Shown piece by piece: positions 3,878-39,826 of a stretch of 64,000 nt of DNA. The notes under the pieces are model-generated. The model did not search any database, was not told the origin of the DNA, and was given only the letters and a program-made list of their open reading frames with translations. Location: assembly GCA_963676915.2 (NCBI GenBank), contig CAXXVK010000062.1, positions 72,342 to 136,341 on the forward strand, given 5' to 3'. The DNA comes from Myxococcota bacterium (lineage in GTDB: Bacteria; Myxococcota_A; SURF-8; G963663525). Numbering within the stretch: the stretch's first letter is position 1; every line of letters starts with the position of its first letter. The position numbers and the translations under genes were made by a program.

Positions 3878-6445
3878 TCATTCCCAGCTAACGCTTTTTT
3901 CACCGTTCAGAACGCGAATCCATAAGGTTTTCGCCTCTGAATCGTACCACCAACCTTCGGTTTCGGAATCCGTCACGCTTTCAAGATCCGACGCTTGCGC
4001 CAGAGGACCTCCATCCAACGAAACGCTTGTGGGTGCTGCGGTTACGGCCAAAAGTTCGAATACCGCACCATAGGCGAATTCGTCACCGCCGGAGAACGCC
4101 AGACTGCTTCCTTCAAGCGAAATGCTTGTATCGTCGAACATGTTGAAAACACTGTCTTTTCCAGGAACTGCACGTACGAACAACACGCCGGGGGTCGTGT
4201 CGTAGGAGTCGATTTCTTCCGGGTGGATTGTCGGCGCCATCGTGTCGATAGTCGGCCTTAGCATCGGGACAATCGCGCCACGGGCGATATACAGTGGCAA
4301 CGTACCCAATGGAGCATTGACAGTCGCCGTTTTCTCGCCTTCATACACTTCGCCGGTCCACCAGTCGATCCATTCTCCCGGCGGGAAAAGCACGTCGCGG
4401 CTCACGGCTCCCCGTTCGAGAATCGGTGCTACATACAGATAATCGCCGAACAGGTAGCTGTCCCAAGGATGTTCTCCCATTTCGGGATACGCCAAACCCA
4501 AAGCACGTTGAATGGGACGGCCATCGCTTTTCAGGTTTTCAGCGTACGTCCATTCGTAGGGCCAGAGTCGCAGGTGTAAACGTGCGTATTTACGGTAGCT
4601 TTCCAGCAGGATTTCGTCGCGTTCACCCGATTCGTTTTTGAATTCCCACGGAACGTTATTGGTGTTCGTACCAACTTGCATCACGGTGGACAACGCGGTC
4701 TGCTCGAACCAGCGCATGAACAGTTCATTATCCGGTGGCGCATGGATATATCCACCCGTGTCCGACCCGTAAAACGGGAAACCGGACGGTCCAAGCGAGA
4801 GTCCGTAAATCATTGAGGAAGGATATCCTCCCACGGATTTTTCGATTTTCCCATCGTCCTCGATTTCATCCCCTTCGAGCGTGAAATTGGCTCCTAGATC
4901 GCCCGGCCAGATGACGCTGACGTTGACCTGGTCGCCGATGGTGCCGCCACGGCAGATCAGGAATCCTCCATCTTCCGGTAGAAGCTCGGCATATACTTGA
5001 TGGTAGAAAAGCTGATAGCGAGCATGCATCGTCTGTTCGTTGGAGCCGTCGTAAAACTCCCAGACGTTACGGAAGTTCGGCAGGCCGGGAAGAACGTCCT
5101 CGGCGTAATCCATCTTGAATCCTTCAATTCCCATGTCGGTGTAGAACCTCATGTTCGTCTGCCACCAGTCAAAGCAGTCGGGATTCGTAAAATCGAGCAG
5201 CGTTCCCCAGGTGTTCAACGGAATTCCGGTTGTGGGCGGTAAAAATCCGTTTTCTTGTACGTAGGCAAGGTTCTCTTGGGTGGTTTCGTGACTGGCATCG
5301 ACGTAAGGAGCCTGCCAGATCGCCATCCGAAGTCCCATATCGTGGGCGTAGTCGATCATCTCCTGTGCATTGGTCCACTGGTCGGGATTCCAGTTGAACG
5401 CCCCGACTTGCGTTGCATAGGGGCGATCCACCCAGTAACCGGAGGTCGCCAGATCGAGATCCCGGATGGTGTCGATGTCGTTGACGACCTGCGCTTGGTT
5501 GTCGTTTTCATCGCGCCAGATCCACGGCCCCAACGCCCAGCGTGCAGGCAGCAACGGATAACCAGTAATCTCGTAGTAATGTTGTGTAATGTCCAGCGGA
5601 TGTTCCTCGGCAAAGAGGTAGAATTCCAATCCATCAGCGGTATCAAGACCGGTTCCGAAGGTCGTTTCCACCAGATCGTCGGCCTCGGTCGCTACTTTGA
5701 ATTCAGCCGGGTGGAAGTCGTTGACGAACAAACCCCAGCCAGTCGAGCCGATCAGCAAAGGAATCGGAACGTGGCGCTCGTTGTACTGGCTTTCCGAATC
5801 GATCGCTTCAAGCTGCATTGCCCGCCGTTTGCCTCGGTGGTTGACGTGATCGTGAGCGTTACCCAAACCATAAAAGCCCTCTTGAGAATCGGCAGTGGCT
5901 TGCAGCCGATAGAATCCTACCCCCTCGGCATCTCCGGCAGGTTTGAGCAGGAACTTAAACGATCCTATGGCAATTTCCTCGATATCCAGTGAAAACACCA
6001 GACCGCCCGTATAAGTCAACGTGTAACTTGCGGTATTCTCTGAAGATTCCGCTTGTACGATGCTTTGCGGCTTCAGCCACGACAACTCATCCTGATAGGG
6101 AGGCGGAAGGTCCGGGTCATCGATCCAGTACGGATCGAAATTGATATCTGCGAACGCAATGTTACTGGATAACGTGGTGGGAACGCGCCCGATCATCAAA
6201 CCGTCTTTTGGAATCGACAGCAGTTTTTGATCTCCGCGAAACAGTGAAATCGTTTCGGTTTCCAGCGAGACTTCCAGAATATAGCCCGAAGCATCCGCTT
6301 CCTGTTCGACTTCCGTATCCCCACCGTCGATCGTGTTGTTGTCGGAGTCCGACGAACAGCCGATAAAAAACAGCGAAACGAAAAACAGTAAAAAAATCAA
6401 ACTGTTCCACCTAGTCGTACGTGTGCTTTGCTTGCTTATCACCAC
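3878..6445 (-). CDS. glycoside hydrolase family 31 lipoprotein
   Basis: Lipobox FIGC; GH31 motifs FYGLG, GFKMDYAE, WPGD, GSDTGGY, ELFMRW, YLFGDYLYVAP. Confidence 0.85.
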   Translation of the reverse strand: MVISKQSTRTTRWNSLIFLLFFVSLFFIGCSSDSDNNTIDGGDTEVEQEADASGYILEVSLETETISLFRGDQKLLSIPKDGLMIGRVPTTLSSNIAFADINFDPYWIDDPDLPPPYQDELSWLKPQSIVQAESSENTASYTLTYTGGLVFSLDIEEIAIGSFKFLLKPAGDAEGVGFYRLQATADSQEGFYGLGNAHDHVNHRGKRRAMQLEAIDSESQYNERHVPIPLLIGSTGWGLFVNDFHPAEFKVATEADDLVETTFGTGLDTADGLEFYLFAEEHPLDITQHYYEITGYPLLPARWALGPWIWRDENDNQAQVVNDIDTIRDLDLATSGYWVDRPYATQVGAFNWNPDQWTNAQEMIDYAHDMGLRMAIWQAPYVDASHETTQENLAYVQENGFLPPTTGIPLNTWGTLLDFTNPDCFDWWQTNMRFYTDMGIEGFKMDYAEDVLPGLPNFRNVWEFYDGSNEQTMHARYQLFYHQVYAELLPEDGGFLICRGGTIGDQVNVSVIWPGDLGANFTLEGDEIEDDGKIEKSVGGYPSSMIYGLSLGPSGFPFYGSDTGGYIHAPPDNELFMRWFEQTALSTVMQVGTNTNNVPWEFKNESGERDEILLESYRKYARLHLRLWPYEWTYAENLKSDGRPIQRALGLAYPEMGEHPWDSYLFGDYLYVAPILERGAVSRDVLFPPGEWIDWWTGEVYEGEKTATVNAPLGTLPLYIARGAIVPMLRPTIDTMAPTIHPEEIDSYDTTPGVLFVRAVPGKDSVFNMFDDTSISLEGSSLAFSGGDEFAYGAVFELLAVTAAPTSVSLDGGPLAQASDLESVTDSETEGWWYDSEAKTLWIRVLNGEKSVSWE

Positions 6446-6487
6446 GATAATCCTCGCTTGATTTTCAAAAACTTTCAGACGTATTGT

Positions 6488-7336
6488 TTATTTCCAGTCC
6501 AATTCCAGGTTGTCGATCAATCTGACACCACCGATAAATGCCGCAACCAATGCAACCGCAGGTTCCGAAATCGTATCCAGCAACGTCAGGTTTTCCCGGC
6601 TGCGGATTTCCAAGTAATCTAACGAAAAATCACCAGCGCTTTCAATCGTTTTTCGCGCTTTGGACGTTAGACGTTTGCAATCTTTCTCACCATGCTTTAC
6701 AGCGTCATTGATTTTTTGAAGCATCTGATACAACAGAATGGCTTTTTCTCTGCTTTTTGCATCAAGGTTGGCATTTCTGCTGGACATTGCCAGTCCATCC
6801 GGCTCACGAAACGTTTCGCCGCCCACTATTTCAATCGGGAAGTCCAGGTCTTTCACCATGCGGCGGATCATCCGCCACTGCTGATAATCCTTTTTCCCGA
6901 AGGCGGTGATGTCGGGCTGAGTCAAATTGAAAAGCTTGGTGACGACGGTCGAAACGCCTTGCATATGACCCGGCCTCGTCGCTCCACACAATCCTTTGGA
7001 TACTTCTTTGACCTGGACTTCGCTTTGAAATCCTTCAGGATACATTTGTGGAACTTCGGGCGAAAAAATGATATCCGCGCCGTTTTCACGACATTTCGCG
7101 AAATCTCCCTCTTCGTCGCGGGGATAGCAATCAAGATCCGTAGCCTGATTGAACTGAATAGGATTGACGAAGATCGTCACGACCAACAGATCGCAGCGCG
7201 ACCGAATAAGCTGCATCAGAGACAGATGTCCATCGTGCAGATAACCCATGGTAGGCACCACACCGATACGCTGCCCTGCCCTCTTCGCCTGCAACGCCCG
7301 TTGTTGCATCTCTTGGGGAGTTCGGATGACTTCCAT
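6488..7336 (-). CDS. panC: pantoate--beta-alanine ligase
   Basis: VPTMGYLHDGHLSL, IFVNPIQF, FGKKDYQQ, REPDGLAMSSRN, RLIDN. Confidence 0.97.
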   Translation of the reverse strand: MEVIRTPQEMQQRALQAKRAGQRIGVVPTMGYLHDGHLSLMQLIRSRCDLLVVTIFVNPIQFNQATDLDCYPRDEEGDFAKCRENGADIIFSPEVPQMYPEGFQSEVQVKEVSKGLCGATRPGHMQGVSTVVTKLFNLTQPDITAFGKKDYQQWRMIRRMVKDLDFPIEIVGGETFREPDGLAMSSRNANLDAKSREKAILLYQMLQKINDAVKHGEKDCKRLTSKARKTIESAGDFSLDYLEIRSRENLTLLDTISEPAVALVAAFIGGVRLIDNLELDWK

Positions 7337-7356: not shown

Positions 7357-8572
7357 TTAGATAACCAAATTCTTACGGATACGTTCCGCTGCTTCTTTCA
7401 CTTGATCCAGCGTCGGAACCAGCGCGAACCTCACGTAGCCTTCTCCCGGGTTGACACCGCCCGAACACTCATCCGTGATCCACGCGCCCGGGTGTGACGA
7501 CCAAAGCCAGTTCGTCCGCCAATAGCTTCTTCGCGAATTCGAGCGAAGACAGCCCGTTCGGCGTTTTCAACCAAATGTAAAATGTAGCAGGTGGAACGTT
7601 GACTTCCAATCCTACGGATTGCAAAGCCTCTACGAGAATATCGCGCTTTTCACGATACAGCAAGCGCATCGATTCGGCATGAGATTCGTCTTCGAGTGCA
7701 GCGATGGCAGCATCCTGAATGAAATCCGGCGTACCGGAATCGATGTTGGTTTTCAGCTTTTTAAACGCTGTCACGATGCGCTCGTCACCCGCAACGAAAC
7801 CGATACGGTAACCGGTCATGTTGTTGCGTTTGCTCATGGAATAGAAGGTCAAAACGCCTTCCCGTTCCACTTCCAGAATCGACATCGGTTTTTCGTCGAA
7901 ATAAATATCAATGTAGCAGCCCTCATCGGCCGCGATAAGGATGTTCCTCTCGTGCGCCCAGTCAATCAAACGCTTGTAATATTCACGAGTTGCCGTAGCT
8001 CCCGTCGGAGAGTTGGGGTAGTTGATCCACAGAATCTTCGCCTTTTCGGCTATGTCGTCCGGGATGGCTTCGACATCCAGCATGAAACCGTTCGATTCGA
8101 GCAAAGGCACGAAATATGGCGTTCCTTCGGCAAACAACGTTCCGGTTTTCATCGGTGGATAACCGGGGGACGGAATAATCGCCACATCTCCGGGATTTAA
8201 AAACGCTTCAGGAAAATGGAATACCGCTTCCTTGCTGCCTATTGTGGAGGCAATTTCTTTTTCGGGATCGAGTTCCACACCGAAACGGCGTTTCATCCAC
8301 GCTGCTGCGGCTTCACGGTAGGTTTTCGATCCGATATAGCTGGGATATCCCGAGGTGGCGTGACGATCCACGGCGTTTTTTACGGTTTCCCGTACCAATT
8401 CAGGAGTCGGATCGAGCGGATCTCCCACTCCGAAATCGATTGGCGTGATGCCTCGGGCTTTCAGATCCTCGACAATACGACCTACTTCGGCGAAGGCGTA
8501 CCCACCCAAGCTATTGATTCTCTTCGAATATTCAATCGTTATACTCATCGTGACCTCTCCTGATTCAATCAA
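7357..8572 (-). CDS. dapL: LL-diaminopimelate aminotransferase (class I/II PLP), with a +1 frameshift near 7488
   Basis: INYPNSPTGA, SMSKRNNMTGYRIGF; removing one base at 7487-7489 restores the C-terminus VTPGAWITD...GEGYVRFALVPT...NLVI* ending at 7357; adjacent to lysA and lysC. Confidence 0.75.
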
Positions 8573-9803
8573 AGGTTACGGTGCTGAACAAATCATCGAG
8601 CGTTTCGGCGCGGCGGATTTGGCGTAATTCGCCATCCAGTGTCAAAAGATACTCCGCATGGCGCGTTTGTCCATTGTAATTGTGGCCCATCGCAAAGGCA
8701 TGGGCGCCACAATGGTGAATCGCGACGACATCCCCGACGTTGCACAAGGGAAGTTCGCGATCTTTGGCAAACTGGTCGCTGTTTTCGCAAATACGTCCAA
8801 CGACCGAGACGGTTTCCTTTTTCGTCTCTCCATTGAGCACGGAAACATAGTGGTAAGCGTCGTAAATCGATGGCCGGGGCATGTCGTTGGAGCAAGCATC
8901 TACACCAACATACTTTTTGTAACTGTCTTTGATGGCATTGACATGGGTTACCAACCACCCGGCAGTAGCTCCGATGAAGCGCCCCGGCTCTACCATGATC
9001 GTCGGTTCGTTCAGCCCGAAGCGTTCAATCTGTCGGTCGAATACTTCACGAATCCCCTGGGCAAGCGGAACGAGGTCGAGGCTTTCTTCTTCAGGACGAT
9101 ACGGTACACCGAAACCACCACCGAGGTTAAGAAATTCAATCTCGATTCCGGTGGTATCACGGATTTCCGCTGCGATTTCAAGCTGTTTCTCTACGACTTT
9201 ATAAAAATACCGATCGTCCAGCACGTTGGAACCGGTCATGATGTGCATACCGAAATGCTTGACACCAAGCGCTTTGGCTTGACGAAACGCTTCGGTAGCT
9301 TTTTCGCGAGCCACGCCGAATTTTGCATCGGGACCAGCCAACACGATGTTTTCCTTGCCCCCCTTGCCGATTCCCGGATTGATACGGAAAGACAACGTTT
9401 CCGGCATACCTAGCGATTCCATCATGGGAAGAAGGCTGATGTCGTCGAGGTTGATGATCAACCCGGCTTCCATCGCCATGACGAATTCATCTCGGAGTGT
9501 GTAGTTCCCCGTATACATTCCACGTGCTCCAAGTTTTTGAGCAAGCCAGGCTTCCGAAGTACTGGACGCGTCGAACCCAAAACCCTCGTCCATGATAATT
9601 TTAAGAAGTTGGGGGTTGGGATTCGCTTTGACCGCGAACAGGGGTTTGAAAGAAGAAAAGACCTTTTCGAACGCCTGTTTCAACGTGCGGCAATTGGCGC
9701 GCAGTTTTTTCTCTTCGTACAGAAAAAACGGGGTCTCAAAACGGTCGGCGGCTTCAAGAATCGCCGACTCGGGCAAATACGTAACTTCTGGATTGACAGA
9801 CAT
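8565..9803 (-). CDS. lysA: diaminopimelate decarboxylase
   Basis: FAVKANPN, AKFGV, NLGGGFG, EPGRF, GRICENSD. Confidence 0.93.
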   Translation of the reverse strand: MSVNPEVTYLPESAILEAADRFETPFFLYEEKKLRANCRTLKQAFEKVFSSFKPLFAVKANPNPQLLKIIMDEGFGFDASSTSEAWLAQKLGARGMYTGNYTLRDEFVMAMEAGLIINLDDISLLPMMESLGMPETLSFRINPGIGKGGKENIVLAGPDAKFGVAREKATEAFRQAKALGVKHFGMHIMTGSNVLDDRYFYKVVEKQLEIAAEIRDTTGIEIEFLNLGGGFGVPYRPEEESLDLVPLAQGIREVFDRQIERFGLNEPTIMVEPGRFIGATAGWLVTHVNAIKDSYKKYVGVDACSNDMPRPSIYDAYHYVSVLNGETKKETVSVVGRICENSDQFAKDRELPLCNVGDVVAIHHCGAHAFAMGHNYNGQTRHAEYLLTLDGELRQIRRAETLDDLFSTVTFD

Positions 9804-11327: not shown

Positions 11328-11378
11328 TTTTAGGGAACTAACGGAAAAAACGGGACTTTTTAGCGACAAACGAAGCCA

Positions 11379-12941
11379 TCAGGGCTGCATATCGATCAAC
11401 TTTTCAGGATCGACCAGAATCAGTTCGCCGACCGTCAATTTCAAACGATACAGTGCCACATAACGTATATTCCGTATACGCGCCAGTTCCTGTTGTCGAT
11501 GCAACAGAGCCGTCCAGCCACGTACAAATGAATCGAAGGAAAGATCTCCTTCGAGAAAGGCGTTTTTTTTAGCGAAGAAGTTGGCCGTTGCTCGCTCGTA
11601 TCCGCTTTCGACGAGTTCCAGAGTCTCTTTTGCCCGAACCGCTTCAGCACGAGCTTTGGCAATATCGACCTGCACGCCATCTTTTTGCGCATCTAGTTCC
11701 GCCTGTTGTCGTTCCAATTCCGCGTTGACGGCAGCGAGCTGGTAATACGTAGATCCCCACTCCCAGATACTCCAGTCGAGAGCCACCCCTCCATAGTACA
11801 GATTATTAGGCAAGAGTTGCCCTTGACCTACACGATATTCATAGCTTCCAAACAAGGAAAATTTCGGGATGAATTCTCCCAACGCCACGTTTCGTAAGGC
11901 ACGATGGGCAGAAATACGTTTACGAAGTCCGACAAAATCGGGACGTTGAGCAATACAACGCTCGACGAGTTCGTTTTCTTCGGAGGACAATAGATTTTCG
12001 TCCGGAAGATCCGGCATGACAGGCACAATATCTTCCAGGCTATTGTCGTCCATTAAAGCATGTAACGCCGCTGTGGCTACCTGTTTTTCGTATTCGGCGC
12101 GAATCGCGAAACGCTGGTAGCTTTCTTTCAGGTTTTCAAGCTCGAATCGTTCCTGTTCTGAAAACCATGGAACGGAAGGTGCTTTTTTCTGGAATTTTTC
12201 CGTTCTTTCTTCACCAAGCCACGTTTCCAGTTCTTGCAGTGCCCAACGGGAATATTCCTTGATTTCAGCCGCATAGATCAATCCAAAATACGCGGAAATG
12301 ACTTTCTCGGCCAGTTCATCCCGTTTCAAGGACGCTTCCAGTTTGCTGGCATCACGTAACCTGTTATAGGCTTTGTACTGAAAATAAGTACCAAACAAAT
12401 CGGTAATGGGCTGTTCGGCCGTAACATTCATTTCCAAAGTGAACTGATTGCGTAACTTGATGGAATGATTGAAATTTCCCTCATCATGATAGGTATTTAA
12501 CGCTGTGACCAGAGTCTGGGGTTGACCCAGTTCCGAGGAGATTTCATCCAACACTGGATCAAGCGGTTGAAACGAGCGCGCCGCATTGATCTTCGCGCGT
12601 AGAGGACTATCCCAGGCAGTGAGCCGGGATTGAGTGTAAACACGTGGAAAAAGTTTGGCGAACGTAGAAAGTGCCAGATTTTCTTTGATTTCCGCCTCGT
12701 AGCGTTCGACCGTCAACGATCTGTTTTCCGTGTACGTTTTGTGCAGGCATTCGTCCAATGACATTTCTCGGGACATTGCCTGAGAAGCAAATAGCCATAC
12801 CATTGAAATCATTACATAAAATGAAATTAGATTCAATCTGACTTCGAACATCGTCCGTTTCATTAGATTCCTCGGCTTTGTGCGTCGAAAATTCCGGTTG
12901 TCTGTTGGAACAAAGATTCCAAATAGAGAAGGAGATGTCAA
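11379..12941 (-). CDS. TolC-family outer membrane efflux protein (true start probably downstream of 12941)
   Basis: MSLDECL, FPRV, QPITD, RPDF, FIPKFSL, LDWSIWEWG pattern. Confidence 0.8.
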   Translation of the reverse strand: MTSPSLFGIFVPTDNRNFRRTKPRNLMKRTMFEVRLNLISFYVMISMVWLFASQAMSREMSLDECLHKTYTENRSLTVERYEAEIKENLALSTFAKLFPRVYTQSRLTAWDSPLRAKINAARSFQPLDPVLDEISSELGQPQTLVTALNTYHDEGNFNHSIKLRNQFTLEMNVTAEQPITDLFGTYFQYKAYNRLRDASKLEASLKRDELAEKVISAYFGLIYAAEIKEYSRWALQELETWLGEERTEKFQKKAPSVPWFSEQERFELENLKESYQRFAIRAEYEKQVATAALHALMDDNSLEDIVPVMPDLPDENLLSSEENELVERCIAQRPDFVGLRKRISAHRALRNVALGEFIPKFSLFGSYEYRVGQGQLLPNNLYYGGVALDWSIWEWGSTYYQLAAVNAELERQQAELDAQKDGVQVDIAKARAEAVRAKETLELVESGYERATANFFAKKNAFLEGDLSFDSFVRGWTALLHRQQELARIRNIRYVALYRLKLTVGELILVDPEKLIDMQP

Positions 12942-14623
12942 TCTTCCAGGAAGTAATTGAAATCTTCCGCTTCTTCTGCGTGGAGAATTTCGTGTACGTG
13001 GGCCGGACTTTTGGCCGTGAAAACCTGCTTCTGGATGTTTCGGTCGGCACCGATCGCTCGGGCCAGTGCGGCTAGTACTTCGAGGTGCCGGTCACGCTGG
13101 CTCGGTGGTGTGGCTAGGAGCACCATACAATGGACAGGCTTGCCGTCCGGTGTGGAAATTCGTAGCCCTTCCCTGCTGATTCCCATAGTCGCAATGATTT
13201 TGTCGCCTTTTTCGAGGATTCCATGGGGAATCGCCAGACCGGAACCGATGCACGTGGACATCTCTTCTTCTCGTTCAAGAATGGACTTTAACAGATGTTC
13301 CCGGTTGATTCGGGTATTGTGAGATTGAATCATCAGATCCAGCAATTGGCGGATGGCATCTTCTTTGTCTTTAGCTTTCATATCCACGACAATGTTCTCT
13401 TCGTGGATAAAATCGATCAGTCGGGCACGGTTTTTTCCGTAATCCCCTGATCGCACCAAAGAAAAGCGCGTCAGCACCGGACCGATGATTTCGTTGAAAA
13501 GCACCGATGTCAGTCCCACGGCGAGAAATAAATCTTTGATCGCAGCGAACTGCGGTTCCTCGTTAACGAGAATCAACAGACCTACGGCTACACCGGCTTG
13601 GGGAATCAATGCCGAGCCAAGGTATTGCCTTACCCGGTCGGTGGTTCCGGCGAGTTTCATGGCGAAATAACCTGAGGCGAGCTTTCCACCCATTCGTACA
13701 ACGACGATCACAAGGGCGATCAATCCTCCCGAAATGGCGTAATCCAGATTCAGTTTCATTCCCGCAAGGGTAAAGAAAATCGTAAAAATGGCATTTTCGA
13801 GATTGGCGAAGACCTTGTGGCCGATGTTGTCTTTTCCCGGTGAAAGATTCGACAGTGTCAGCCCCAGGAACATACTGGCTAACATCGTGGAAATATTCAT
13901 GTAATCGGCCAAACCAGTTACGATGAGAATTGCGGTTAGAGAAGCGGTGGTCAACTTTTCGGGACGAACGATTTTTCGCGTGCCGATAACGAGAATGATT
14001 CCGACGCTACCTCCGAGTAGAATTGAAGCTCCCAGTTGTTTCAAAGGAGATATCAGCACCAGCCACTCTGAATGCTGCCCGTTGATATCCAAACCGACTT
14101 TCGCCGCCGCATGGGCTATTTCGAAAAGCAGGATGCAGGCAAGGTTGTTCAACGCCACTGCGCCAACAAGCGTTTTGACGAACACACCTTTCGAACGGGT
14201 TTCGGCGATCAGTGCTACGATGGTAGCCGGAGCGGTCGAGACGGCCAACGCTCCCAGCATGACGCTCATCGTCCAATCCATCGAAGGAAACAGCAGCATC
14301 GCCAGGATGATCAATAGCGGCGTTAGAATTGATTCGAAGGCCAGAAGAATCAGCAACCGTTTGTAAGCGTTGCGAAGCTTTCGAAAATTCAGATGATTTC
14401 CGACGGCTACCGAAACAAGTCCCAAAGCGAAGTTGGTGATGGGTTGCAGGTCATCCACATGGCCGTATTGGAACAAGCCCAGGACAGACGGCCCGATCAG
14501 AAAACCCGCCACGATCTGCCCCGTAACCGAAGGCATACGAAAGCGTTTCACGATCGAACCCAAAAGGGTTCCGGCGATCAGGACAATGGAAACGACCAGG
14601 AGTGGATTCGCCGACTCAAGCAT
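12938..14623 (-). CDS. cation:proton antiporter fused to a PTS EIIA (Fru/Ntr-type) domain
   Basis: About 12 TM helices (GFLIGPSVLG, STAPA, PQAGVAVGL) plus C-terminal EREEEMSTCIGSGLAIPHG. Confidence 0.88.
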   Translation of the reverse strand: MLESANPLLVVSIVLIAGTLLGSIVKRFRMPSVTGQIVAGFLIGPSVLGLFQYGHVDDLQPITNFALGLVSVAVGNHLNFRKLRNAYKRLLILLAFESILTPLLIILAMLLFPSMDWTMSVMLGALAVSTAPATIVALIAETRSKGVFVKTLVGAVALNNLACILLFEIAHAAAKVGLDINGQHSEWLVLISPLKQLGASILLGGSVGIILVIGTRKIVRPEKLTTASLTAILIVTGLADYMNISTMLASMFLGLTLSNLSPGKDNIGHKVFANLENAIFTIFFTLAGMKLNLDYAISGGLIALVIVVVRMGGKLASGYFAMKLAGTTDRVRQYLGSALIPQAGVAVGLLILVNEEPQFAAIKDLFLAVGLTSVLFNEIIGPVLTRFSLVRSGDYGKNRARLIDFIHEENIVVDMKAKDKEDAIRQLLDLMIQSHNTRINREHLLKSILEREEEMSTCIGSGLAIPHGILEKGDKIIATMGISREGLRISTPDGKPVHCMVLLATPPSQRDRHLEVLAALARAIGADRNIQKQVFTAKSPAHVHEILHAEEAEDFNYFLED

Positions 14624-23202: not shown

Positions 23203-23242
23203 CACAGTAACTTAATGAAATTTAAGAGAAAAATGCATCGAT

Positions 23243-23315
23243 GGACGGGGATTGCATCCCCGTCCTAACGTTTTCTTCAAGGCAAAACGCGAAGAACAGG
23301 ATGCAATCCTGCTCC
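23243..23315. repeat. REP-like palindrome doublet, family B
   Basis: GGACGGGGATTGCATCCCCGTCC then, inverted, GAACAGGATGCAATCCTGCTCC; an 18-nt core recurs at 38273-38290. Confidence 0.6.
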
Positions 23316-23326
23316 GCTTGTGCCCC

Positions 23327-23638
23327 TTATTTCAGAAGTCCCCCCGAATTCTCCCAAGTTGTTTGCCCGCCTACATCGACTCGAACATCTACAAACTGGC
23401 AATCGCCATCTTTGCATCTTTCAATTTTTGTCTGTTTGCATTCCGAGCTGCCATCTTCATGGGCGATACAGTAATACAGTTGTGCAATTTCCTTATCCTT
23501 ACTGTTAGCCCCCTCATTTTGGTGGACAGTCATCCAGAAACTATTATTCTCTTTCATCGAATGATGAAAATCAATGTGTGTCCCTCCACAACCGGCTAAG
23601 AGAATCGTCAGCACAAAACAAACAATTAGCATCCTCAT
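23327..23638 (-). CDS. small Cys-containing lipoprotein, unknown function
   Basis: RBS AGGAG, ATG at 23638, lipobox LAGC. Confidence 0.7.
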   Translation of the reverse strand: MRMLIVCFVLTILLAGCGGTHIDFHHSMKENNSFWMTVHQNEGANSKDKEIAQLYYCIAHEDGSSECKQTKIERCKDGDCQFVDVRVDVGGQTTWENSGGLLK

Positions 23639-23814: not shown

Positions 23815-23979
23815 GTAGGTCGGACAGATTTTCTGTCCGACATTTCCCGGTTGGAGCATTTTTTTGTCGGACAGAAAATCTGTCCGACCTACCCAACTAC
23901 CCAACTTTGAAAACGGGTGCAGAGCAGGTGTCCAACGTTGATGCATCAAACATCACGGCTTGTCGGGGTCAGGTGTCGT
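23815..23979. repeat. duplicated element, copy 1: REP doublet (REPIN-like) plus conserved box
   Basis: GTAGGTCGGACAGATTTTCTGTCCGACA (23815-23842), its exact inverse (23865-23892), then box 23914-23979; near-identical to 24526-24703. Confidence 0.92.
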
Positions 23980-24015
23980 TTGCAACTGTCTTGACGGGTA
24001 CACAAACTACCAAAC

Positions 24016-24423
24016 TCAAGAATTGTATCCAGCTTTGCTTTTTCTTACCATATAAATTGCAACAGGTAATATAATAAAAGCACTAAAATACAGTATCCTT
24101 TCACAATTGTTCATTACCTTCAATTCATCTAAATAGAGGCTATAAACGATCCTGTCATAAAAATCCGCCCATACAGAGTAGGAAAAAAACAACCACATTA
24201 TTATGAGTAGAATGTGGTGTATGTAGTACATTTTTTTTGCTGAAAAGATGAACAAAATCGCAACCGGCACTCCAGGGATGACATTAACAGCAATTCTTAG
24301 AATAGAGCAGTTACTTTGTGAATTGCAGAAACCTGTTAAACCGAAAAATAAACACAGAAGTACTACGGATAGCATCGACATAGTGTATTTAATAGAAAAG
24401 ACACTTGAGAAAATAGTTTTCAA
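24016..24423 (-). CDS. AT-rich small multi-TM protein, putative orphan immunity protein
   Basis: 135 aa, about 4 hydrophobic helices, AAGGA upstream of TTG, lies between the two repeat copies. Confidence 0.55.
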   Translation of the reverse strand: MKTIFSSVFSIKYTMSMLSVVLLCLFFGLTGFCNSQSNCSILRIAVNVIPGVPVAILFIFSAKKMYYIHHILLIIMWLFFSYSVWADFYDRIVYSLYLDELKVMNNCERILYFSAFIILPVAIYMVRKSKAGYNS

Positions 24424-24441
24424 ATGACCATCCTTTTCTAA

Positions 24442-24525
24442 TTATGGACCATCGATTCCACAAGACATTTCATTTTTTTCACGTCGTTTGGTGCTTTTTA
24501 TTAATCCATTTTCTTTCAAGTAGTA
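24442..24525 (-). pseudogene. possible 3' remnant of a toxin gene cut off at the REP
   Basis: Frame YYLKENGLIKSTKRREKNEMSCGIDGP* ends 18 nt before the immunity-like gene; AT-rich DNA stops at the REP GTAG. Confidence 0.35.
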
Positions 24526-24703
24526 GTAGGTCGGACAGATTTTCTGTCCGACATTTCCCGGTTGGAGCATTTTTTGTCGGACAGAAAATCTGTCCGACCT
24601 ACCCGGCTAAATCGAAACCCTCTTCGAAACCGGGTGCAGAGCAGGTGTCCAACGTTGATTGCTGATGCATCAAACATCACGGCTTGTCGGGATCAGGTGT
24701 CGT
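24526..24703. repeat. duplicated element, copy 2: REP doublet plus conserved box
   Basis: REPs at 24526-24553 and 24575-24602 are identical to copy 1; box 24631-24703 carries a 7-nt insertion. Confidence 0.92.
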
Positions 24704-25130
24704 CGTTGTTGTGAGGATCGTTTTTGAGATTGGGATTCGGTAAAGAAATAGATTCAACAGGAAAATCAATTGTTTTAAAAATAAAAATTAAAGCTATTAC
24801 GACATTCATTAAGTAAATTACGATAAAGAAGCTGATGCCAGTTTTTCCAAACTCAATCAAGCCAACATAAAAAGATTGAGTTACTACACAATAAGCCACG
24901 AAAAAATACTTATACAATTGCTTGTCTTTTAACATGTTTCTCCACAGAAAGATTATAGCAGCTAATGAATGACCGATACCTAAAAATCTAGGAAATAACC
25001 AAATACTATTTGGAAATTTCAAAGCCACCATTAAAACAAAATACCCTGTGACCGTTATTATATGGCATAAAAGTATTTTATCTGCGTTCAATTGCCTGAC
25101 TTTATAAATTTTCTTAAGTGCTGTTAACAT
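24693..25130 (-). CDS. putative immunity protein (about 4 TM)
   Basis: ATG at 25130 overlaps the toxin stop (TAATG coupling); AT-rich; hydrophobic. Confidence 0.65.
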   Translation of the reverse strand: MLTALKKIYKVRQLNADKILLCHIITVTGYFVLMVALKFPNSIWLFPRFLGIGHSLAAIIFLWRNMLKDKQLYKYFFVAYCVVTQSFYVGLIEFGKTGISFFIVIYLMNVVIALIFIFKTIDFPVESISLPNPNLKNDPHNNDDT

Positions 25131-25663
25131 TACATAGCCCAATCTTGTAGCCACTCTACAAACTTATTTAAGGCTTCAACTGGTTCTTCTGATGCCTTAC
25201 TTGCAATTTCCTTGAAATGCTCCAACTTTTGCTTTGCCACTTCATCATGATAAGGCTCACATGCATCGTCTACATATTGTCCGAGCGGTCCTAATCCTAA
25301 TAGGTTTCTCCAATGACCAAAGCAAATTCCATCAGGACACTCAGCCAAAGCCTCATCAAATTGCTGTACACCTCTTTTGCTTAAACCAGGAAAAGCAACG
25401 AGCAGTTGGTATCCAGTCACGGCAGTTCCAACTACACCAAGCGGTAATCCTACTCCAGAGCCAACGGCAACAGCAGTAATAATTGCTCCAGTTCCACCAC
25501 TTATTCCAGCCTTTCCAGCCCTAATTAGGTTTATAATACCAACTGTCATTTTTGTAACATTTAGCATACCCTCCGGGTCGATCCCATTCACCGGGTCATT
25601 CCCGACGTACACGTACAGGTTCACCTGCCCTCTCGATGGAACGGAGATTCCAGCCGGTTGCAA
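25130..25663 (-). CDS. orphan RHS C-terminal module (end of RHS core plus toxin tip)
   Basis: NLYVYVGNDPVNGIDPEG is the RHS core terminal DPxG motif; base composition turns AT-rich right after it; no upstream RHS body. Confidence 0.85.
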   Translation of the reverse strand: MQPAGISVPSRGQVNLYVYVGNDPVNGIDPEGMLNVTKMTVGIINLIRAGKAGISGGTGAIITAVAVGSGVGLPLGVVGTAVTGYQLLVAFPGLSKRGVQQFDEALAECPDGICFGHWRNLLGLGPLGQYVDDACEPYHDEVAKQKLEHFKEIASKASEEPVEALNKFVEWLQDWAM

Positions 25664-31725: not shown

Positions 31726-34444
31726 ATGGCAACACCGATCCAAGATTCCTTTCATACCCTGACGCCGCTTTCCACCTCGGAAGGCACGCACCACTTTTTC
31801 AACCTGCAACGCCTGACCGAAGAAGGTTTGGGCGATGTCGACCGCTTTCCGTACTCGATCAAAGTCCTGGTCGAATCCGTTCTTCGTGGCGAAAACGGCA
31901 GAGAAATCACCCGTGAGGACGTTGTCCGTATCGCGGCTTACGATCCCGCCGACCCGGGAACGAAGGAAATCCCCTTCAGTCCTGCCCGAGTGCTGTTGCA
32001 GGATTTTACGGGTGTTCCGGCTGTGGTCGATCTGGCCGCCATGCGAAATGCCATGTCTCGTGCCGGTGGCGATCCCCAGCGAATCAATCCCCTCGTACCG
32101 GTTGATCTGGTCATCGACCACTCGGTCCAGGTGGATGCCTTTCGCGACCCGTCGGCGATTATCTTCAATCAAAACAAGGAGATGGAGCGCAATCAAGAGC
32201 GCTACCGCTTCCTTCGATGGGGGCAACAGGCATTCGATAATTTCGGCGTGGTGCCGCCGGGCAACGGCATTGTGCATCAGGTCAATCTCGAATATCTCGC
32301 CCGAGTGGTTCGAAAAGAGACGCGAGATACGCAAACGTTGCTGTTCTCGGATTCTCTTGTCGGGACCGACTCCCACACAACGATGATCAACGGTCTGGGC
32401 GTGCTGGGTTGGGGAGTGGGTGGTATCGAAGCCGAAGCGGTAATGCTGGGTCAACCCTACTACATGACTCCGCCAAAAGTCGTCGGATTGCGCCTGTCGG
32501 GACAACTGCCCGAGGGGGCGACCGCTACAGACCTTGTGCTGGCTGTTACCCAGGTCTTGCGTCACCATGGCGTTGTGGGGCAATTCGTCGAATTCTTCGG
32601 ACCGGGACTGAAAAACCTGTCTCTTCCGGATCGGGCAACGCTTGCCAACATGGCGCCGGAATATGGTGCGACGGTAGGCTTTTTCCCGGTGGATGACGAA
32701 ACGCTTCGTTACCTGGAGTTGTCCGGGCGTTCGAAAGAACAGATCGAGATGATTGAAGCCTATACCAAAGCTCAGGGCTTGTTTGCCTCCGACGATCGCC
32801 CCGAACCTATCTACGGGAAACGCTGGACTTCGATCTCGGAAGCGTCGAGCCGTCGTTGGCCGGTCCCAAACGGCCACAGGATCGGATCCCGGTTTCTCGT
32901 CTGCAAAGCGACTGGAAAACGTTGCTGGAAGCGCCGCAAGGAAAACGGGGATTCGAGCTTGGCAAGGAAGATCTGGGACGAGAAGCGAATGTTGTGTGGG
33001 AGGATGGTCAGGAGGAGACGGTCCGCCACGGTTCGGTGGTGATTGCCGCGATTACGAGTTGCACGAACACAAGCAACCCTTCGGTGATGATCGCCGCCGG
33101 TCTTGTCGCGAAAAAGGCAGTGGAGCGCGGGTTGACGGTTCGTAAGCATGTCAAAACAAGTCTCGCGCCGGGTTCGAAAGTCGTGACCGAATACCTGAAC
33201 CGAAGCGGCCTGACATCCTACCTCGACACGTTAGGGTTCAATCTCGTTGGATATGGCTGCACGACCTGTATCGGCAACAGCGGACCGCTGCCCGAACCGG
33301 TAACCAAAGCCATTCGGGACGGTGAACTTGTGGCGGCGAGCGTGCTTTCGGGCAATCGCAATTTCGAAGGTCGAGTGCATCAGCATGTCAAGGCCAACTT
33401 CCTGGCTTCTCCTCCGCTCGTGGTGGCTTATGCACTGGCGGGAACGGTGGATCTCGACCTCTCGACGCAGCCTATCGGCAAAGATCGCGACGGCTCGCCC
33501 GTGTACCTGAAAGACCTCTGGCCCTCCAATGAAGAGATCCGGGCTGTTGTTGCGGACGCGCTTCGTCCCGAGCTTTTCCTTAGTGAATACAAGAACATAG
33601 AAGAAGGAAACGCCGAGTGGAACGGCATTGCCGTCGAAAGCGGCAACCTCTACCCTTGGGATGTGGAGAGCACCTACATTCGGGAGCCTCCGTTTTTTGC
33701 GACCTTTCGAGCAAGGAACCGGGCTTGTCTTCCATCGAAAACGCCCGGTTGCTGGTGGCTGTCGGGGACAGCACGACGACCGACCACATCAGCCCGGCCG
33801 GTGCGATCAAGGCCGATAGCCCCGCTGGAAAATATCTGGTGGAGAAAGGGATTTTTCAAGAGAATTTCAACTCTTACGGAAGTCGTAGAGGGAATGATGA
33901 AGTCATGACGCGGGGGACGTTTGCCAACGTCCGTTTGAAAAACCGATTGGCTCCCGGCACCGAAGGAGGATGGACCACACACTTCCCCACCGGTGAGGTG
34001 GTATCGATCTTCGAAGCGGCTCAACGTTATCGAAAAGAACGCACGTCGCTGCTCGTCATTGCCGGAAAAGATTACGGCATGGGGTCCAGTCGCGATTGGG
34101 CGGCGAAGGGGACGTATCTTCTTGGAATCAAAGCGGTTATCGCGCAATCCTTCGAGAGAATTCACCGCTCCAACCTGGTCGGAATGGGCGTTTTGCCGCT
34201 GGTGTTCGAGGCGGGCGATTCCTTCGAAAGTCTCGGTCTGAAGGGAGACGAACGTTTCCGGCTGGAGGTGCCCGAGACGCTGACGCCGGGGCAGTCTCTT
34301 ACGGTGGAAGCTACGGGAGAGGATGGAATTCCTAAACGATTCCAGGTGGTTTGCCGTCTGGATACCGAAGTTGAAATCGACTATTACCGCAACGGCGGTA
34401 TTCTTCATACGGTGCTGCGGCGAATGATTGCCGAAAGCTGCTGA
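31726..34444 (+). CDS. acnA: aconitate hydratase A, split by two single-base frameshifts (~32817, ~33697)
   Basis: [64 protein letters not shown] across three consecutive ORFs. Confidence 0.95.
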
Positions 34445-34638: not shown

Positions 34639-34725
34639 AAGACGGAAAATGATGCCGGGGGATAATTCACTTCAACAGGTGGAGAGGTGGGTTTTTTCTA
34701 TATTTTATTGGAAGGTAATGAAATC

Positions 34726-36010
34726 ATGACCAACAAGAAAAAGACGACCGAACCGTCCGAGAAGAAAGATCTGCTCAGTGATATTCGAAAATTCCGCTCG
34801 ATCGGACAAAAGCGTGTGGGAATGCTGTTTTCCGGTGGTCCCGCTCCGGGTGCCAATGCGGTGATCGCTACGGCGACGATCCAATTTCTCAACGACGGCT
34901 GGGAAGTCATCGGCTTTTATAAAGGATACGAAAACCTTGCCCAATTCGACCGCGAGAAACCGCGTCTGTTCAAGGAAGGCGAGCACTTCGTACGGTTGAA
35001 TTACGATCACGTCACGAAGATCCGCCAGTTGGGTGGCTGCCTGTTGAAGACGGCCCGCACCAATCCTTCCAAAGTAAGCGGCAAGGAAATCAAGAAAATG
35101 GAGCACCTCGCCGATCCCGCCCACACCGGGGATCTGTACAAAGTGCTCGATGCCATGGAATATCTGGGCATTCAGGCGCTGGTATCCATCGGTGGTGACG
35201 ACACGCTGAAGACCGCGTACTATCTCAGCCTGCTGGGTGTTCCCACGGTGCACGTTCCAAAAACCATCGACAACGACTACTTCGGTATTCCGTGGACTTT
35301 CGGGTATTTTACAGCCATCGAGCGTGCCCGTCAGGAAATCAAGGTTTACAACCAGGAAGCCTACACCACCGACTGCTATTTCGTGCTCGAACTGATGGGT
35401 CGCAAGGCCGGTTGGTATACGCTGGGAGCGGGTATCGCGGGTGAGGCGGTGCGAATGATCGGCCCGGAGGATTACGATTCCGGCTTCGATCTCGACGAGT
35501 TGGTCAACGATCTGCTGAATATGATCGAAACCCGCAAGAAAAACGGCAAGAACTATGGTGTCATTACGGTGTCCGAAGGTCTGGCCGACAAGCTGCCCGA
35601 CGACATGAAGGCCGGAACGGTAGACGAGCACGGCAACCTGAAACTTTCGGAATCGAAGATCGGCGAAATTTTGGGGAAAACGCCTCAAAGAAGGCTACCT
35701 GAAACGTTTTGGACACAAACTCACGGTCAAAAGCGAAACCATCGGGTACACCACCCGCTGCACCGAGCCGTCCGCCTTTGACGTGCTGTTGGGTTCCCAG
35801 TTGGGAATGGGCGCGTTCCGCTTCATCAAAGACGGCAAGAACGCCCACATGGTCAGTGTTGGGGATAACCTCGAAATCCACGACGTTCCGTTCCCGGAAC
35901 TGATCGACCCCAAAACCTTCAAAACCAAACTACGCTTCGTCCCACGGGAAGGCGATTTCTACAAGCTGGCAAAATCCCTGGAGTATCGGGCGGTTTCTAG
36001 CGAAGGCTGA
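34726..36010 (+). CDS. 6-phosphofructokinase family protein, PPi-type signature, with a +1 frameshift near 35678
   Basis: SGGPAPGAN, SIGGDDT, PKTIDND, ELMGR; removing one base in GGGGAAAA joins ...IGYTTRC...FDVLLGSQLG to the stop at 36010. Confidence 0.88.
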
Positions 36011-36336: not shown

Positions 36337-36873
36337 ATGAAAGATCTAAGTCGATTGTATGTTAATGGTGTAACGCATTTCTTTACCGTTGTTACCGATC
36401 AACGACGCCCGATATTATGTGACGCCCCCTTGCGTAGCAATTTGCGAAATGCTTTGCAAAGAGTTCGAATGAATTACCCATTCGAGATTGTAGCTTGGGT
36501 TTTATTGCCGGATCATCTTCATACCATATGGTCTCTGCCTAAAAACGATCCCGACTATTCTACCCGATGGCGACTGGTGAAAGGAATTGTTTCTCATCAG
36601 ATGAAGAGCCGTTTGGATTTGGACAGATGCCGCTCGCAAAGTCAAATTCGGAAAGGGGAAAGCGGGTTATGGCAGCATCGTTTTTTGGAGCACACCATAA
36701 GGGATGAAAATGATTTCTCCCGTCACTTTGATTACATTCATTTCAATCCAATAAAGCATGGTTTGGATGAAAATCCTGATGAATGGAAATGGTCAACGTA
36801 TCACAGATATTTGAAACATGGTTATTACGGAGAACACCGACAATTGTTTGATTCGAATGTTGATGCTGAATGA
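36337..36873 (+). mobile_element. REP-associated tyrosine transposase (RAYT / TnpA-REP, Y1 HUH)
   Basis: FFTVVT, VLLPDHLHTIW (HUH), LWQHRF-EHTIRD, DYIHFNPIKHG (catalytic Tyr), WKWSTYH; flanked by inverted REPs. Confidence 0.93.
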
Positions 36874-36880
36874 AAAGCAA

Positions 36881-36905
36881 TGTCGAGTGAAATCACCCGA
36901 CCTGA
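36881..36905 (-). repeat. inverted REP right of the RAYT
   Basis: TGTCGAGTGAAATCACCCGACCT is the reverse complement of the left REP with 1 internal mismatch; GTAG end altered. Confidence 0.8.
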
Positions 36906-36925
36906 TGTGAGGGAGGAAAGAAATT

Positions 36926-38176
36926 GTGAAAATAACGCGTAAGCACCTTAAAAAGAATCCCATTAAGGCCAGGAAAACAAACCAATGGTTACACACTTTA
37001 AATAGATCTCCCTTTGTAGGACGATTCGCTTCTGCATATCAAGAGCTAAACGACATGTCTAGCGAATGTTTTTGGTGTGGGATAGGAAAGCTGTTTGTCT
37101 TTTTGCTGATTATTGCAGTGTTTTGGGGTGGCTTGCTGTCTAGCAGCTTGAAGATACTTGATTTGTTTGATGTGAAATTACGAGTTGATGACGATATCAA
37201 AATTGTTGGTAACGCCACTAAATACGGAGATACGTATAGCTATTTTGTTCACGCTGCAAGTACGTGGACAAATACCGGAATAAAATTGAATAACGGCGAG
37301 AGTATCAAAGTTGAAAACATTCTAGGAAAAGTGACTACAGGCTTACCAATTCCCGCAGAGTTTTACGGGCAGCTAAATAGTGTATGTGAATATGAGGGGC
37401 TAATTGCGGATCTAGACGCTTGTGAAAAATTTAGAGAATGCAGGAATAAACAATTCAAAGAAAATTTAAAAGAGGCGTGTGATGATAAAAGAAAGCATTG
37501 CATGATTGCATATGACGTAGTTTGCAAAGGTTTTAGTTTGATCGAAATTCTTGAAAATTACGACTATTCTATTTCTTCTCAGACCAATCAATATTGTGAC
37601 GAAAAGAGATGTTACACATTAGAAAATCAACAACTTAGCAACGAGAAAAAACAAGAAAAATGTGGCGAGGCGTACTATAAGAATTACTATCCTGATGATT
37701 ACGAAAAAATCATTCAATTTCCTCTTAAGAGTCTAGGATTAAGTTGTTCTCAAATAAACGTAGTATCTAGATTTTTTTCACGTTATGCACGGCATAACTT
37801 TGTAGACTGGCATGGTCAAAAAGAGGAAAGTTACGTAGATAAAGATCGAGAACGACCTTTGCCGCAGTTGCCAGACTCGAAGGAATACTATGGTAAATTC
37901 GGGAAAAAATTTCCTCATTACTCTATTGATACGAATATGGTGGAAAAGAGTTATCCACATGGAGCTCTCCTTATAGGATATACTGAGGATAGAGAAGATG
38001 AGTGTTGCAAAAAAATGCTAAAGTCAAAAAGACTAAAACAAGTAAAAAATAATAAAATTTACGATCTGCCCAAGGAATTATCAACTGGAGGATATATTTG
38101 CTTTGTAGTAAACGATGTAGATCAATTTCGAGGGAGTAACATAGGATTTTTCCAAATTCTTTTTCGAAAAAAGTAG
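36926..38176 (+). CDS. AT-rich membrane-anchored Cys-rich protein, unknown function
   Basis: 416-aa ORF, one TM segment, many Cys; GGGAGG upstream of GTG. Confidence 0.65.
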   Translation: MKITRKHLKKNPIKARKTNQWLHTLNRSPFVGRFASAYQELNDMSSECFWCGIGKLFVFLLIIAVFWGGLLSSSLKILDLFDVKLRVDDDIKIVGNATKYGDTYSYFVHAASTWTNTGIKLNNGESIKVENILGKVTTGLPIPAEFYGQLNSVCEYEGLIADLDACEKFRECRNKQFKENLKEACDDKRKHCMIAYDVVCKGFSLIEILENYDYSISSQTNQYCDEKRCYTLENQQLSNEKKQEKCGEAYYKNYYPDDYEKIIQFPLKSLGLSCSQINVVSRFFSRYARHNFVDWHGQKEESYVDKDRERPLPQLPDSKEYYGKFGKKFPHYSIDTNMVEKSYPHGALLIGYTEDREDECCKKMLKSKRLKQVKNNKIYDLPKELSTGGYICFVVNDVDQFRGSNIGFFQILFRKK

Positions 38177-38359: not shown

Positions 38360-39826
38360 CTATTCGTAGAAGCATTGGTAGGTGTAATCCACGCAAGAAT
38401 CCACGACTCCATCGCAATCGTTGTCGTTGGATTCTTTCAGCACGTTCCCCAGTTCGTCGAGGGTATATGTTTTGCAACTGTTCGGCGTTTCGTCGTCGCA
38501 ATCGCTGTCGTTCTGTTCGGTCAACCGATTGCCCTTGTCGTCGTAGGTGTAGGACCGGCAACTCTCATCCGGTGTGCCATCGCAATCGGGGTCAAGGGAA
38601 TAGCTCAACTCGTTGCCCTGAACATCGTATGCGTAGGACGCGCAATTTGCATCCGGCGTGCCATCGCAATCGTCGTCATTGGAATAACTCAGTGGGTTTC
38701 CTGAGTCATTGTACGCAGAATTATTGCAAGTTTCCGGCGTACCGTCGCAATCGCTGTCATGGGAATAGCTCGTCCGGCATCCAAGATCATCGTAGGTGTA
38801 GGTCTTGCAATGGTCGTCCGGCGTGCCATCGCAGTCGCTATCCAACGTCTCCGTCAACTCATTCCCCTGGTCGTCGTACGTGTTGGTGTAACATGAATCC
38901 GGTGTACCGTCGCAATCGTCGTCAAGCTGTTTCGTCAACTCATTCCCCATGTCGTCATAGGTAAAGGTTTGGCAATTGTTCGGTGTCCCGTCGCAGTTGC
39001 TGTCCACCTTTCTCGTCAATTTATTCCCCATGTCGTCGTAGGTATTGGTCAGGCAATTATCCGGTGAGCCGTCGCAGTCGAAATCATAGAAATCCGTCAG
39101 CATGTTCCCCTGATCGTCGAACGTTTTAGTATCGCACAAACGATCCGGGGTGCCGTCGCAATCGTTGTCTGTTTGTGTCGTCAATTGATTCCCCAAGGTG
39201 TTGTACGTATTGGTTACGCAACCTATATCGAAGGTGCCATCGCAATCGCTGTCCTGTTTAATTGTCAATTGGTTTCCTTGAGTGTCGTACGTATACGTGT
39301 AGCAATTTCTATCCGGCACGCCATCGCCATCGACATCCAATTGAACGGTCAGTATGTTCCCATTGTCATCGTAGGTAAAGGAATGACAAACATCCGTCAC
39401 TCCGTCGCAATCGTTGTCAACTTCCGCGGTCAGTTTATTGCCATTTTCATCGTAGGAAAGACTTTGGCAAGTTTCCGGCGTTCCGTCGCATTCCACATCC
39501 GAACCGCTTGTCAGTATCAAACAGTACTGCTCCGGCACACTTTCCTCTTCTGCCTCGGCAACGTCTTCCTCGGTTTCTTCCTCATCGCCATCGGCAAGGT
39601 CTTCTTCGGCATCGACGAGATCTTCCTCTGCCTCCACGATGTCTTCCTCGGTTGTCGTATCGCCATCAGCAAGAACTTCTTCCCATGCGTCATCCTCGAC
39701 CTCATCGATATCGGCCTCTGGGTTCTCCTGCGTGTTGTTTTTGTCGTCGCTGCATCCGATATTCAATCCCAGACACAGAACCAAGACGAGTACGAATGTA
39801 CTACCAAGAATAACCTTCCGTTTCAT
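38360..39826 (-). CDS. lipoprotein with 13 tandem Cys-containing YD-like repeats
   Basis: Lipobox NIGC, Asp/Glu-rich linker, repeat C-x-T-x-T-Y-D-x-x-G-N-x-L-T-x3-D-x-D-C-D-G-T-P-D. Confidence 0.85.
   Translation of the reverse strand: MKRKVILGSTFVLVLVLCLGLNIGCSDDKNNTQENPEADIDEVEDDAWEEVLADGDTTTEEDIVEAEEDLVDAEEDLADGDEEETEEDVAEAEEESVPEQYCLILTSGSDVECDGTPETCQSLSYDENGNKLTAEVDNDCDGVTDVCHSFTYDDNGNILTVQLDVDGDGVPDRNCYTYTYDTQGNQLTIKQDSDCDGTFDIGCVTNTYNTLGNQLTTQTDNDCDGTPDRLCDTKTFDDQGNMLTDFYDFDCDGSPDNCLTNTYDDMGNKLTRKVDSNCDGTPNNCQTFTYDDMGNELTKQLDDDCDGTPDSCYTNTYDDQGNELTETLDSDCDGTPDDHCKTYTYDDLGCRTSYSHDSDCDGTPETCNNSAYNDSGNPLSYSNDDDCDGTPDANCASYAYDVQGNELSYSLDPDCDGTPDESCRSYTYDDKGNRLTEQNDSDCDDETPNSCKTYTLDELGNVLKESNDNDCDGVVDSCVDYTYQCFYE

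Follow-up and report, generated by a model that had tools for sequence, protein, structure and literature searches.

REP-RAYT elements at the seams of orphan Rhs toxin-immunity modules in one bacterial order

In the described cases of Rhs C-terminal displacement and in orphan rhs-CT/immunity arrays, a core tip is followed by a variable toxin domain of low G+C content (GC) and a coupled downstream gene, and the units are stacked, the immunity gene remaining when the old toxin is lost (PMC2935791, PMC5361080; like most papers cited here, these were available to us in part). For the downstream seam of a unit, the explanation given there is recombination, either homologous or illegitimate and facilitated by homology, and no enzyme is identified in the parts available; homology-facilitated illegitimate recombination has also been proposed for the immunity arrays of Vibrio, for which no integrase is known (PMC5361080; PMC8125069). 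Here we analyze an Rhs island with the same organization, on the minus strand (25663..23815) of a 64-kb stretch of DNA from an uncultured Myxococcota bacterium (contig CAXXVK010000062.1; the whole stretch is called the window below, and all positions without a contig or locus name refer to it). It differs from these arrays in what stands at the seams. In the order to which the genome belongs, most of them carry a repetitive extragenic palindrome (REP) with a fixed leader, and the link between orphan Rhs toxin-immunity seams and elements consisting of REPs and their associated RAYT nucleases, which are domesticated transposases, is real and repeatable.

The published enzymology of RAYTs is relevant to such seams. 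The Escherichia coli enzyme binds single-stranded REP and cuts between C and T, either 5′ or 3′ of the REP and also at a distance; it stays bound to the T, and any attacking 3′-OH is joined to this T, freeing the enzyme. In the case of one group 3 enzyme, the cut shifted to CC when the REP was given a GTGG head, and the authors proposed that adjacent genes or parts of genes might be sequestered by a REP-RAYT unit (PMC3333891, PMC8266576). The benefit of RAYTs to the cell has been stated to be unclear (10.1101/2021.07.10.451892). The loci described here go beyond the usual REP-RAYT system in three respects, namely several RAYTs per genome, instead of the usual single copy, in varied neighbourhoods, a conserved leader without structure, and a strong association with a single family of polymorphic toxins, none of which we found described for RAYTs in the literature searched. 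The same search, which mostly did not reach subscription papers, returned no paper linking RAYTs or REPs to Rhs seams; the nearest ones (PMC10210955 and 10.1101/2024.07.17.603846) handle the two subjects separately in the parts available to us, and Rhs is not mentioned in PMC5581495.

The Rhs island and its repeats

Every part of the island named in a first-pass annotation, made from the letters of the window alone, was located on inspection of the sequence. The island opens with the last 21 codons of an Rhs core (25568..25630, on the minus strand like all genes of the island), which end in a DPxG motif; this tip is 95% identical at the DNA level to the Rhs core of a relative and gives a weak match to TIGR03696, positions 54-76. 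It continues into a putative toxin, a 145-aa Rhs C-terminal domain (25130..25567) with homologues behind Rhs cores. Immunity-like gene 1 (24693..25130; 145 aa, GC 0.31), which encodes a membrane protein, overlaps the toxin stop by one base at its start, and its own stop lies inside the first copy of the leader, or box (24603..24702, minus strand), a sequence with a fixed 5′ edge at CGAC that leads into the REP. The first REP doublet, or REPIN (24526..24602), consists of inverted GTAG-headed 28-nt arms around a 21-nt spacer. An AT-rich stretch of 84 bases (24442..24525, minus strand, GC 0.32) is joined to its CTAC end and is followed by immunity-like gene 2 (24016..24423; 119-135 aa, GC 0.33), which encodes a second membrane protein with up to four hydrophobic segments, which has no toxin gene before it, by a second box (23893..23978, minus strand) and by a second doublet (23815..23892, 22-nt spacer).

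The annotation had described two unrelated, AT-rich immunity-like genes with near-identical downstream elements, and this was borne out: the two genes gave no match when compared with each other, the 28-nt arms of the two doublets are 100% identical, and the boxes match at 98% over 41 nt, followed by a 7-nt indel. It was also right that the AT-rich DNA of the second unit stops at the GTAG of a REP, the two meeting at the CTAC/GTAG end of doublet 1 via a short CTA repeat. The possible toxin tail remnant that it had read in the AT-rich stretch (24442..24525) is not established, since the stretch amounts only to an open frame of 28 codons, for which no homologue was seen among the fetched loci.

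By every feature that could be tested, the repeats are of the REP/REPIN-RAYT kind (PMC3333891, PMC8266576, 10.1101/2021.07.10.451892). A GTAG tetranucleotide is followed by an imperfect palindrome that forms a hairpin, the hairpins occur as inverted doublets and in many, mostly intergenic, copies, a Y1 HUH gene of the RAYT family is flanked by the same REP, and seams lie at CT. Both doublets fold stably (z -12.2 and -11.1, respectively; 0/200 shuffles equally stable), and cutting at C|T is predicted from the sequence signature. The box is a conserved unstructured 5′ leader of REPs: its top strand folded no better than shuffles (z 0.0 and +1.45), and on these values an attC-like fold was rejected. 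Cassette arrays of integrons (IntI/attC) also consist of tandem promoterless low-GC genes, each with a repeat able to hold a stop codon. Judged by how its box folds, the window array is no integron. The hairpin present is a RAYT-type REP, the candidate enzyme is a HUH Y1 nuclease and not a tyrosine recombinase, and the units are often gene fragments.

The genome of the window (G000; assembly 90.8% complete) holds 10 exact copies of the window REP at three loci. Besides the window, these are a locus on contig C57, where the REP spacer is fused to the terminal 164 nt of another Rhs core, behind which come a toxin, a small gene, a box and further REPs, and a locus on contig C1, where the REP flanks a RAYT gene (G000:C1:39324-39860; NF047646, 190.5 bits, cut-off 80) with an AT-rich open reading frame (ORF), a partial box and REPs downstream. 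The only Rhs core matches in the assembly are the partial ones of the window and C57, and a search for a full-length rhs gene found none. The island is thus unlike a classical orphan array in having no parent rhs gene in the assembly and in the absence of core homology from unit 2; in the arrays of relatives, core homology opens every unit. DNA with GC≤0.37 precedes the box at 5/5 box loci of G000, vs. 14/465 REP-cluster flanks. The 9-nt REP head has 176 matches in this genome and the REP superfamily 234 clusters; a cluster lies within 200 nt upstream of 2.9% of 3834 crudely called ORFs. The genome-wide search called for by the annotation gave a divided answer, the exact REP keeping to orphan Rhs modules and a RAYT gene and the superfamily being common beside ordinary genes. 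The exact REP was also found in one record of a genome collection, at 13 loci of which 1 adjoins an orphan core; it was not counted as independent because it is of the same lineage. Elsewhere in G000 (C13:3007-3600), a variant of the box and a decayed GTGG REP stand behind a low-GC lipoprotein-like gene, and Rhs sequence is absent.

REPs at truncated Rhs modules across the order

A family search of 10 genomes of the order gave 40 Rhs core matches, of which 8 lie in long reading frames and the other 32 in short frames. All 40 core loci were fetched regardless of repeats, and our script recognized 31 of the 32 short-frame modules; the listing of the one it missed, the first of locus L032, shows no REP. 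A REP stood at the 5′ edge of the core in 18/31 truncated modules, compared to 13/1200 random and 4/99 low-GC gene starts in G000. When shared junctions were merged, 10/23 modules still started at a REP (p=5e-6 vs. the low-GC control), and counted per locus a REP lay at the seam or at most 1.5 kb downstream in 13/17. The seam REPs belong to three subfamilies, two GTAG-headed and one GTGG-headed, and are sparse genome-wide (46 GTAG-type in G003, 11 GTGG-type in G005, 7 in G006). Ten types of REP-to-core junction were seen, across six genomes. The proposal of the annotation that REPs mark cassette boundaries, made from two units, thus holds more widely, with CT or TAG at many of the seams.

Outside the order, the REP families of the window's order were found at 0/32 truncated modules and a generic headed hairpin at 1/32 (vs. 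9/31 inside), in a sample of 40 regions selected from the 150 listed of 382 matches; some of these modules could be intact genes of short length. Of the outside-order genomes tested, 4/5 lack a RAYT over the cut-off. The pattern is not general beyond the order, and a dependence on RAYT is not thereby established. Inside the order, RAYT genes occur in several copies per genome with differing neighbourhoods (for instance L207 and L213 in G001, and L189 and L199 in G005; one copy is truncated), and low-GC DNA lies right behind 6/23 of them.

The junctions show preferred letters on both sides of the repeat. Downstream, an in-register CT or CTAC opens the core homology in 5/7 GTAG-type junction types (C57, L022, L067, the main G003 type and the first module of L070); the share of CT among core positions is 3.4-5.6% (p=0.005, allowing five positions). 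Upstream, the repeat starts at the TAG stop of the immunity gene in 7/12 internal seams, 6 of them preceded by G; in the control, 20/99 low-GC ORFs had a TAG stop and 6/99 a G-preceded one. REP heads within 16 nt of a stop were also seen at 11/120 in G000, these being without leader. The 5′ edge of the box is fixed and its left neighbour variable in 17 copies (C 7, A 5, G 3, T 2), and in four cases (the window, L022, L060 and L061) the box cuts into an ORF, replacing its natural stop. A fixed right and a variable left side are the trace that would be expected of transfer onto an enzyme-bound 5′ end. The junction signature as a whole agrees with the chemistry published for RAYTs.

Individual loci add to this picture. 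In L022, the box-REP unit is repeated with short Rhs core scraps between the copies, while in L065 a REP doublet joins the front of one toxin domain to the tail of a different one. C57 and L060 resemble each other in the core tip (77%) and in an arm further downstream (78%), with unrelated cargo in between. Directly behind an orphan Rhs module, L060 of G001 (6230-7100) has a REP, a hairpin and a RAYT 3′ end tandemly duplicated, leaving two remnants. The GTGG-type seams show microhomology with the core.

Three further arrangements were seen in relatives. L022 of G001 (8330-8720) has three tandem box-plus-GTGG-REP units, resembling repeated strand transfer or rolling amplification. L062 of the same genome (5900-7600) is a mosaic of at least three repeat families, with a repeated intergenic stretch and start of the next gene. 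In L082 of G003 (11370-13070), REPs enclose a TIR/SEFIR-domain gene and another gene of low GC, which may both be defence cargo.

Island products and neighbouring genes

The putative toxin domain has 99 relatives at E≤0.001, the best 52% identical and most of them behind an Rhs core, which form an unnamed family. It was modelled as a helical hairpin with one hydrophobic Gly-rich segment (predicted local distance difference test score, pLDDT, 84.7); fold searches with this model gave nothing at E≤0.001, the top Z of 9.4 belonging to generic helical hairpins. These features suggest that the domain may be membrane-damaging. As a query against metagenome contigs it gave 256 pattern matches, 0 of which were confirmed. 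Homologue searches with the proteins of genes 1 and 2 returned only the query itself among 33 and 17 candidates, respectively, and Atlas matches were uninformative for both. The two are putative immunity genes by their position, and the labels toxin and immunity both follow from position because neither immunity-like protein had a homologue in the searches.

Upstream of the island, a DnaJ/HTH_25 gene on the minus strand ends at 25684, a short spacer before the core tip. A degenerate GATG-REP was considered before unit 1 and rejected, since 6% of random stretches match the GATG-REP profile equally well. Beyond doublet 2 lies a lipoprotein-like gene (23327..23638, minus strand; 103 aa, GC 0.43) with REPs on both sides and one relative, at 70% identity; it is possibly a third unit. 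A hairpin pair of the GATG REP family, a different and abundant one, closes the island (23237..23315).

The window holds a second RAYT gene on the plus strand (36337..36873; NF047646, 176.9 bits, cut-off 80), which is flanked by another GTAG-REP subfamily and 56% identical to the RAYT carrying the REP of the island. It is followed, within 36337-38176, by a 416-aa low-GC gene without Pfam or NCBIfam match. Next to it, at 38360-39826, a 488-aa lipoprotein-like ORF has many Cys/Asp-rich YD-like repeats and a weak PF05593 match; a similar weak match was seen on contig C67. One gene, which by its motifs we take to be aconitase-like, is split over three overlapping ORFs (31726-34444), and the gene at 34687-35781 also seems frame-shifted; these may be assembly errors.

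How the seams may have formed

The explanation we favour, with a probability of about 0.5, is that the non-homologous seam left by Rhs displacement or pruning is the work of RAYT, which cuts and joins the DNA, and that homologous recombination spreads this seam. It combines the association described above with an enzyme chemistry published for other RAYTs, whose action at these loci we infer. A RAYT would cut just 5′ of a REP, at the fixed edge of the leader, and the leader would receive the 3′ end of an incoming toxin-immunity piece that core homology anchors upstream. If the RAYT cut on the far side, the REP could be linked to a CT or CTAC lying within the following core or toxin gene, with loss of the old toxin and retention of its immunity gene. 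The outcome would be the order seen in the window, i.e. tip, toxin and immunity gene, then leader and REP, then remnant and immunity gene, then again leader and REP. An existing REP-core seam could then be copied by homologous recombination, which would also exchange the modules that lie between core tip and leader-REP arm; the end state would be an archive of immunity genes. Uptake of single-stranded DNA by the bacterium is possible because its genome has a ComEC-family gene, the gene being evidence for the capacity and not for its use. It should be noted that insertion of new DNA and deletion beside a REP are not distinguishable from these genomes, deletion fitting equally well.

A number of observations weigh against the RAYT explanation. 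At the junctions, CT is missing from 2/7 GTAG-type types (the second modules of L070 and L074), and the references used to read them are only about 65-75% identical, one case having been read by eye. In the census, motifs were fixed after seams had been seen, the control came from G000 alone, and kin are not independent. G003 contributes 9/18 seams yet has no NF047646 match, its Y1 matches looking IS200-type, and its six aligned seams share a single junction, their cores being mosaic and their REPs in part decayed. In G001, REPs stand at 0/3 seams of the array that follows the full-length rhs gene, and DNA with GC≤0.37 precedes just 3/12 boxes. In the window itself, no REP was found 5′ of unit 1. 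Most REPs of the superfamily adjoin ordinary genes in G000, and the clusters fetched lie mostly by ordinary genes and insertion sequences; copies of gene tails behind REPs, looked for at ordinary genes of G000, were found in 0/230 gene-REP pairs. Lastly, no circles or joints were found in the contigs of three sequencing runs.

The G003 pattern is compatible with a founder event whose seam was then spread by homologous recombination, or with later loss of the RAYT. The first of these can be extended to all loci: a REP would have landed at rhs a few times, and seam and leader would since have served as mere homology or microhomology arms for RecA-type or hairpin-provoked illegitimate recombination, with no further action of a RAYT. 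This account, which we regard as doubtful but worth weighing, explains the lack of a RAYT match in G003, the degenerate REPs at its one common junction and its mosaic cores, as well as the single junction common to three G005 seams, the two arms shared by C57 and L060 and the core microhomology of GTGG-type seams, and the published circle-and-crossover model likewise requires no site-specific enzyme (PMC2935791, in the part available). It copes less well with ten REP-to-core junction types in six genomes, and each of the unrelated immunity genes needed to be joined to the leader, at a fixed edge and often at a stop codon. REPs might also have entered AT-rich, dispensable islands only after the arrays had formed, with nearby deletions blurring the picture and no role in building them. 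Low-GC genes of G000 are indeed bracketed by REPs more often than others (5/58 low-GC ORFs vs. 14/3776 others), REPs are mostly found beside ordinary genes, and the doublet of L065 interrupts a toxin frame. Such passive marking is nonetheless unlikely, as REPs are fused directly to truncated cores with no trace of the missing 5′ gene on their other side, the box has removed the natural stop of four ORFs, and the enrichment at modules (18/31) is far above that at low-GC ORFs (4/99).

The annotation had gone further and seen a candidate capture system in the island. In its strongest form, a RAYT would excise leader-to-leader units as single-stranded circles and integrate them at other REPs, much like integron cassettes, the cargo being toxin-immunity pairs and other genes of foreign origin. 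The repeated cargo-box-REP units of the window, L022 and L061 are in keeping with this, as are the low-GC DNA directly behind 6/23 RAYT genes, the differing neighbourhoods of RAYT loci across the order and, weakly, a 185-nt contig of run X2 that corresponds to the end of gene 2 and the box (23888-24072) in a run with next to nothing else of the stretch. The annotation's proposed search for junctions or circles, made at contig level, was fruitless, and no cassette was seen at two places. Sequencing depth is lower on one side of the locus; this drop reaches into core genes and was left out of account. Neither an empty site nor a strain breakpoint was found among the genomes compared, which include no close strain. 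Synteny gives no empty-site test: in a congener, the orthologue of the window's upstream gene is followed by another gene, presumably Nudix-like by its motif, and the genes flanking the orphan loci map to different contigs. The box had 49 pattern matches in metagenomes, which were taken as chance because 0 were followed by a REP. The box is moreover unstructured, the units usually lack promoters and 5′ ends, and circular DNA was not seen from E. coli REPs (10.1101/2024.07.17.603846, in the part available). With REPs abundant by ordinary genes, a REP-free array in G001 and no RAYT match in G003, a capture system is not shown, and we consider one improbable.

A role for the enzyme can be put forward tentatively, although we would not yet lean on it: in the building of toxin-immunity arrays in this lineage, RAYT may be the missing enzyme, a one-sided joiner sealing homology-anchored foreign DNA to a REP leader, with REPs as dispersed capture sites for immunity and defence genes. 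If this were true, REPIN-RAYT systems would gain the host benefit that theory demands of them, and the 'illegitimate' seam of C-terminal displacement would be explained. Should founding events and copying alone account for the seams, they would still show REPs shaping polymorphic-toxin loci in a manner that is new, though of narrower interest. The link is directly testable with oligonucleotides and one purified protein, since the loci supply naturally occurring seams resolved to the base, together with a cognate enzyme and cut sites that can be predicted. Two questions meet at these loci, the benefit of RAYT-REP systems to their hosts and the enzyme behind the non-homologous seam of Rhs and type VI secretion system immunity arrays.

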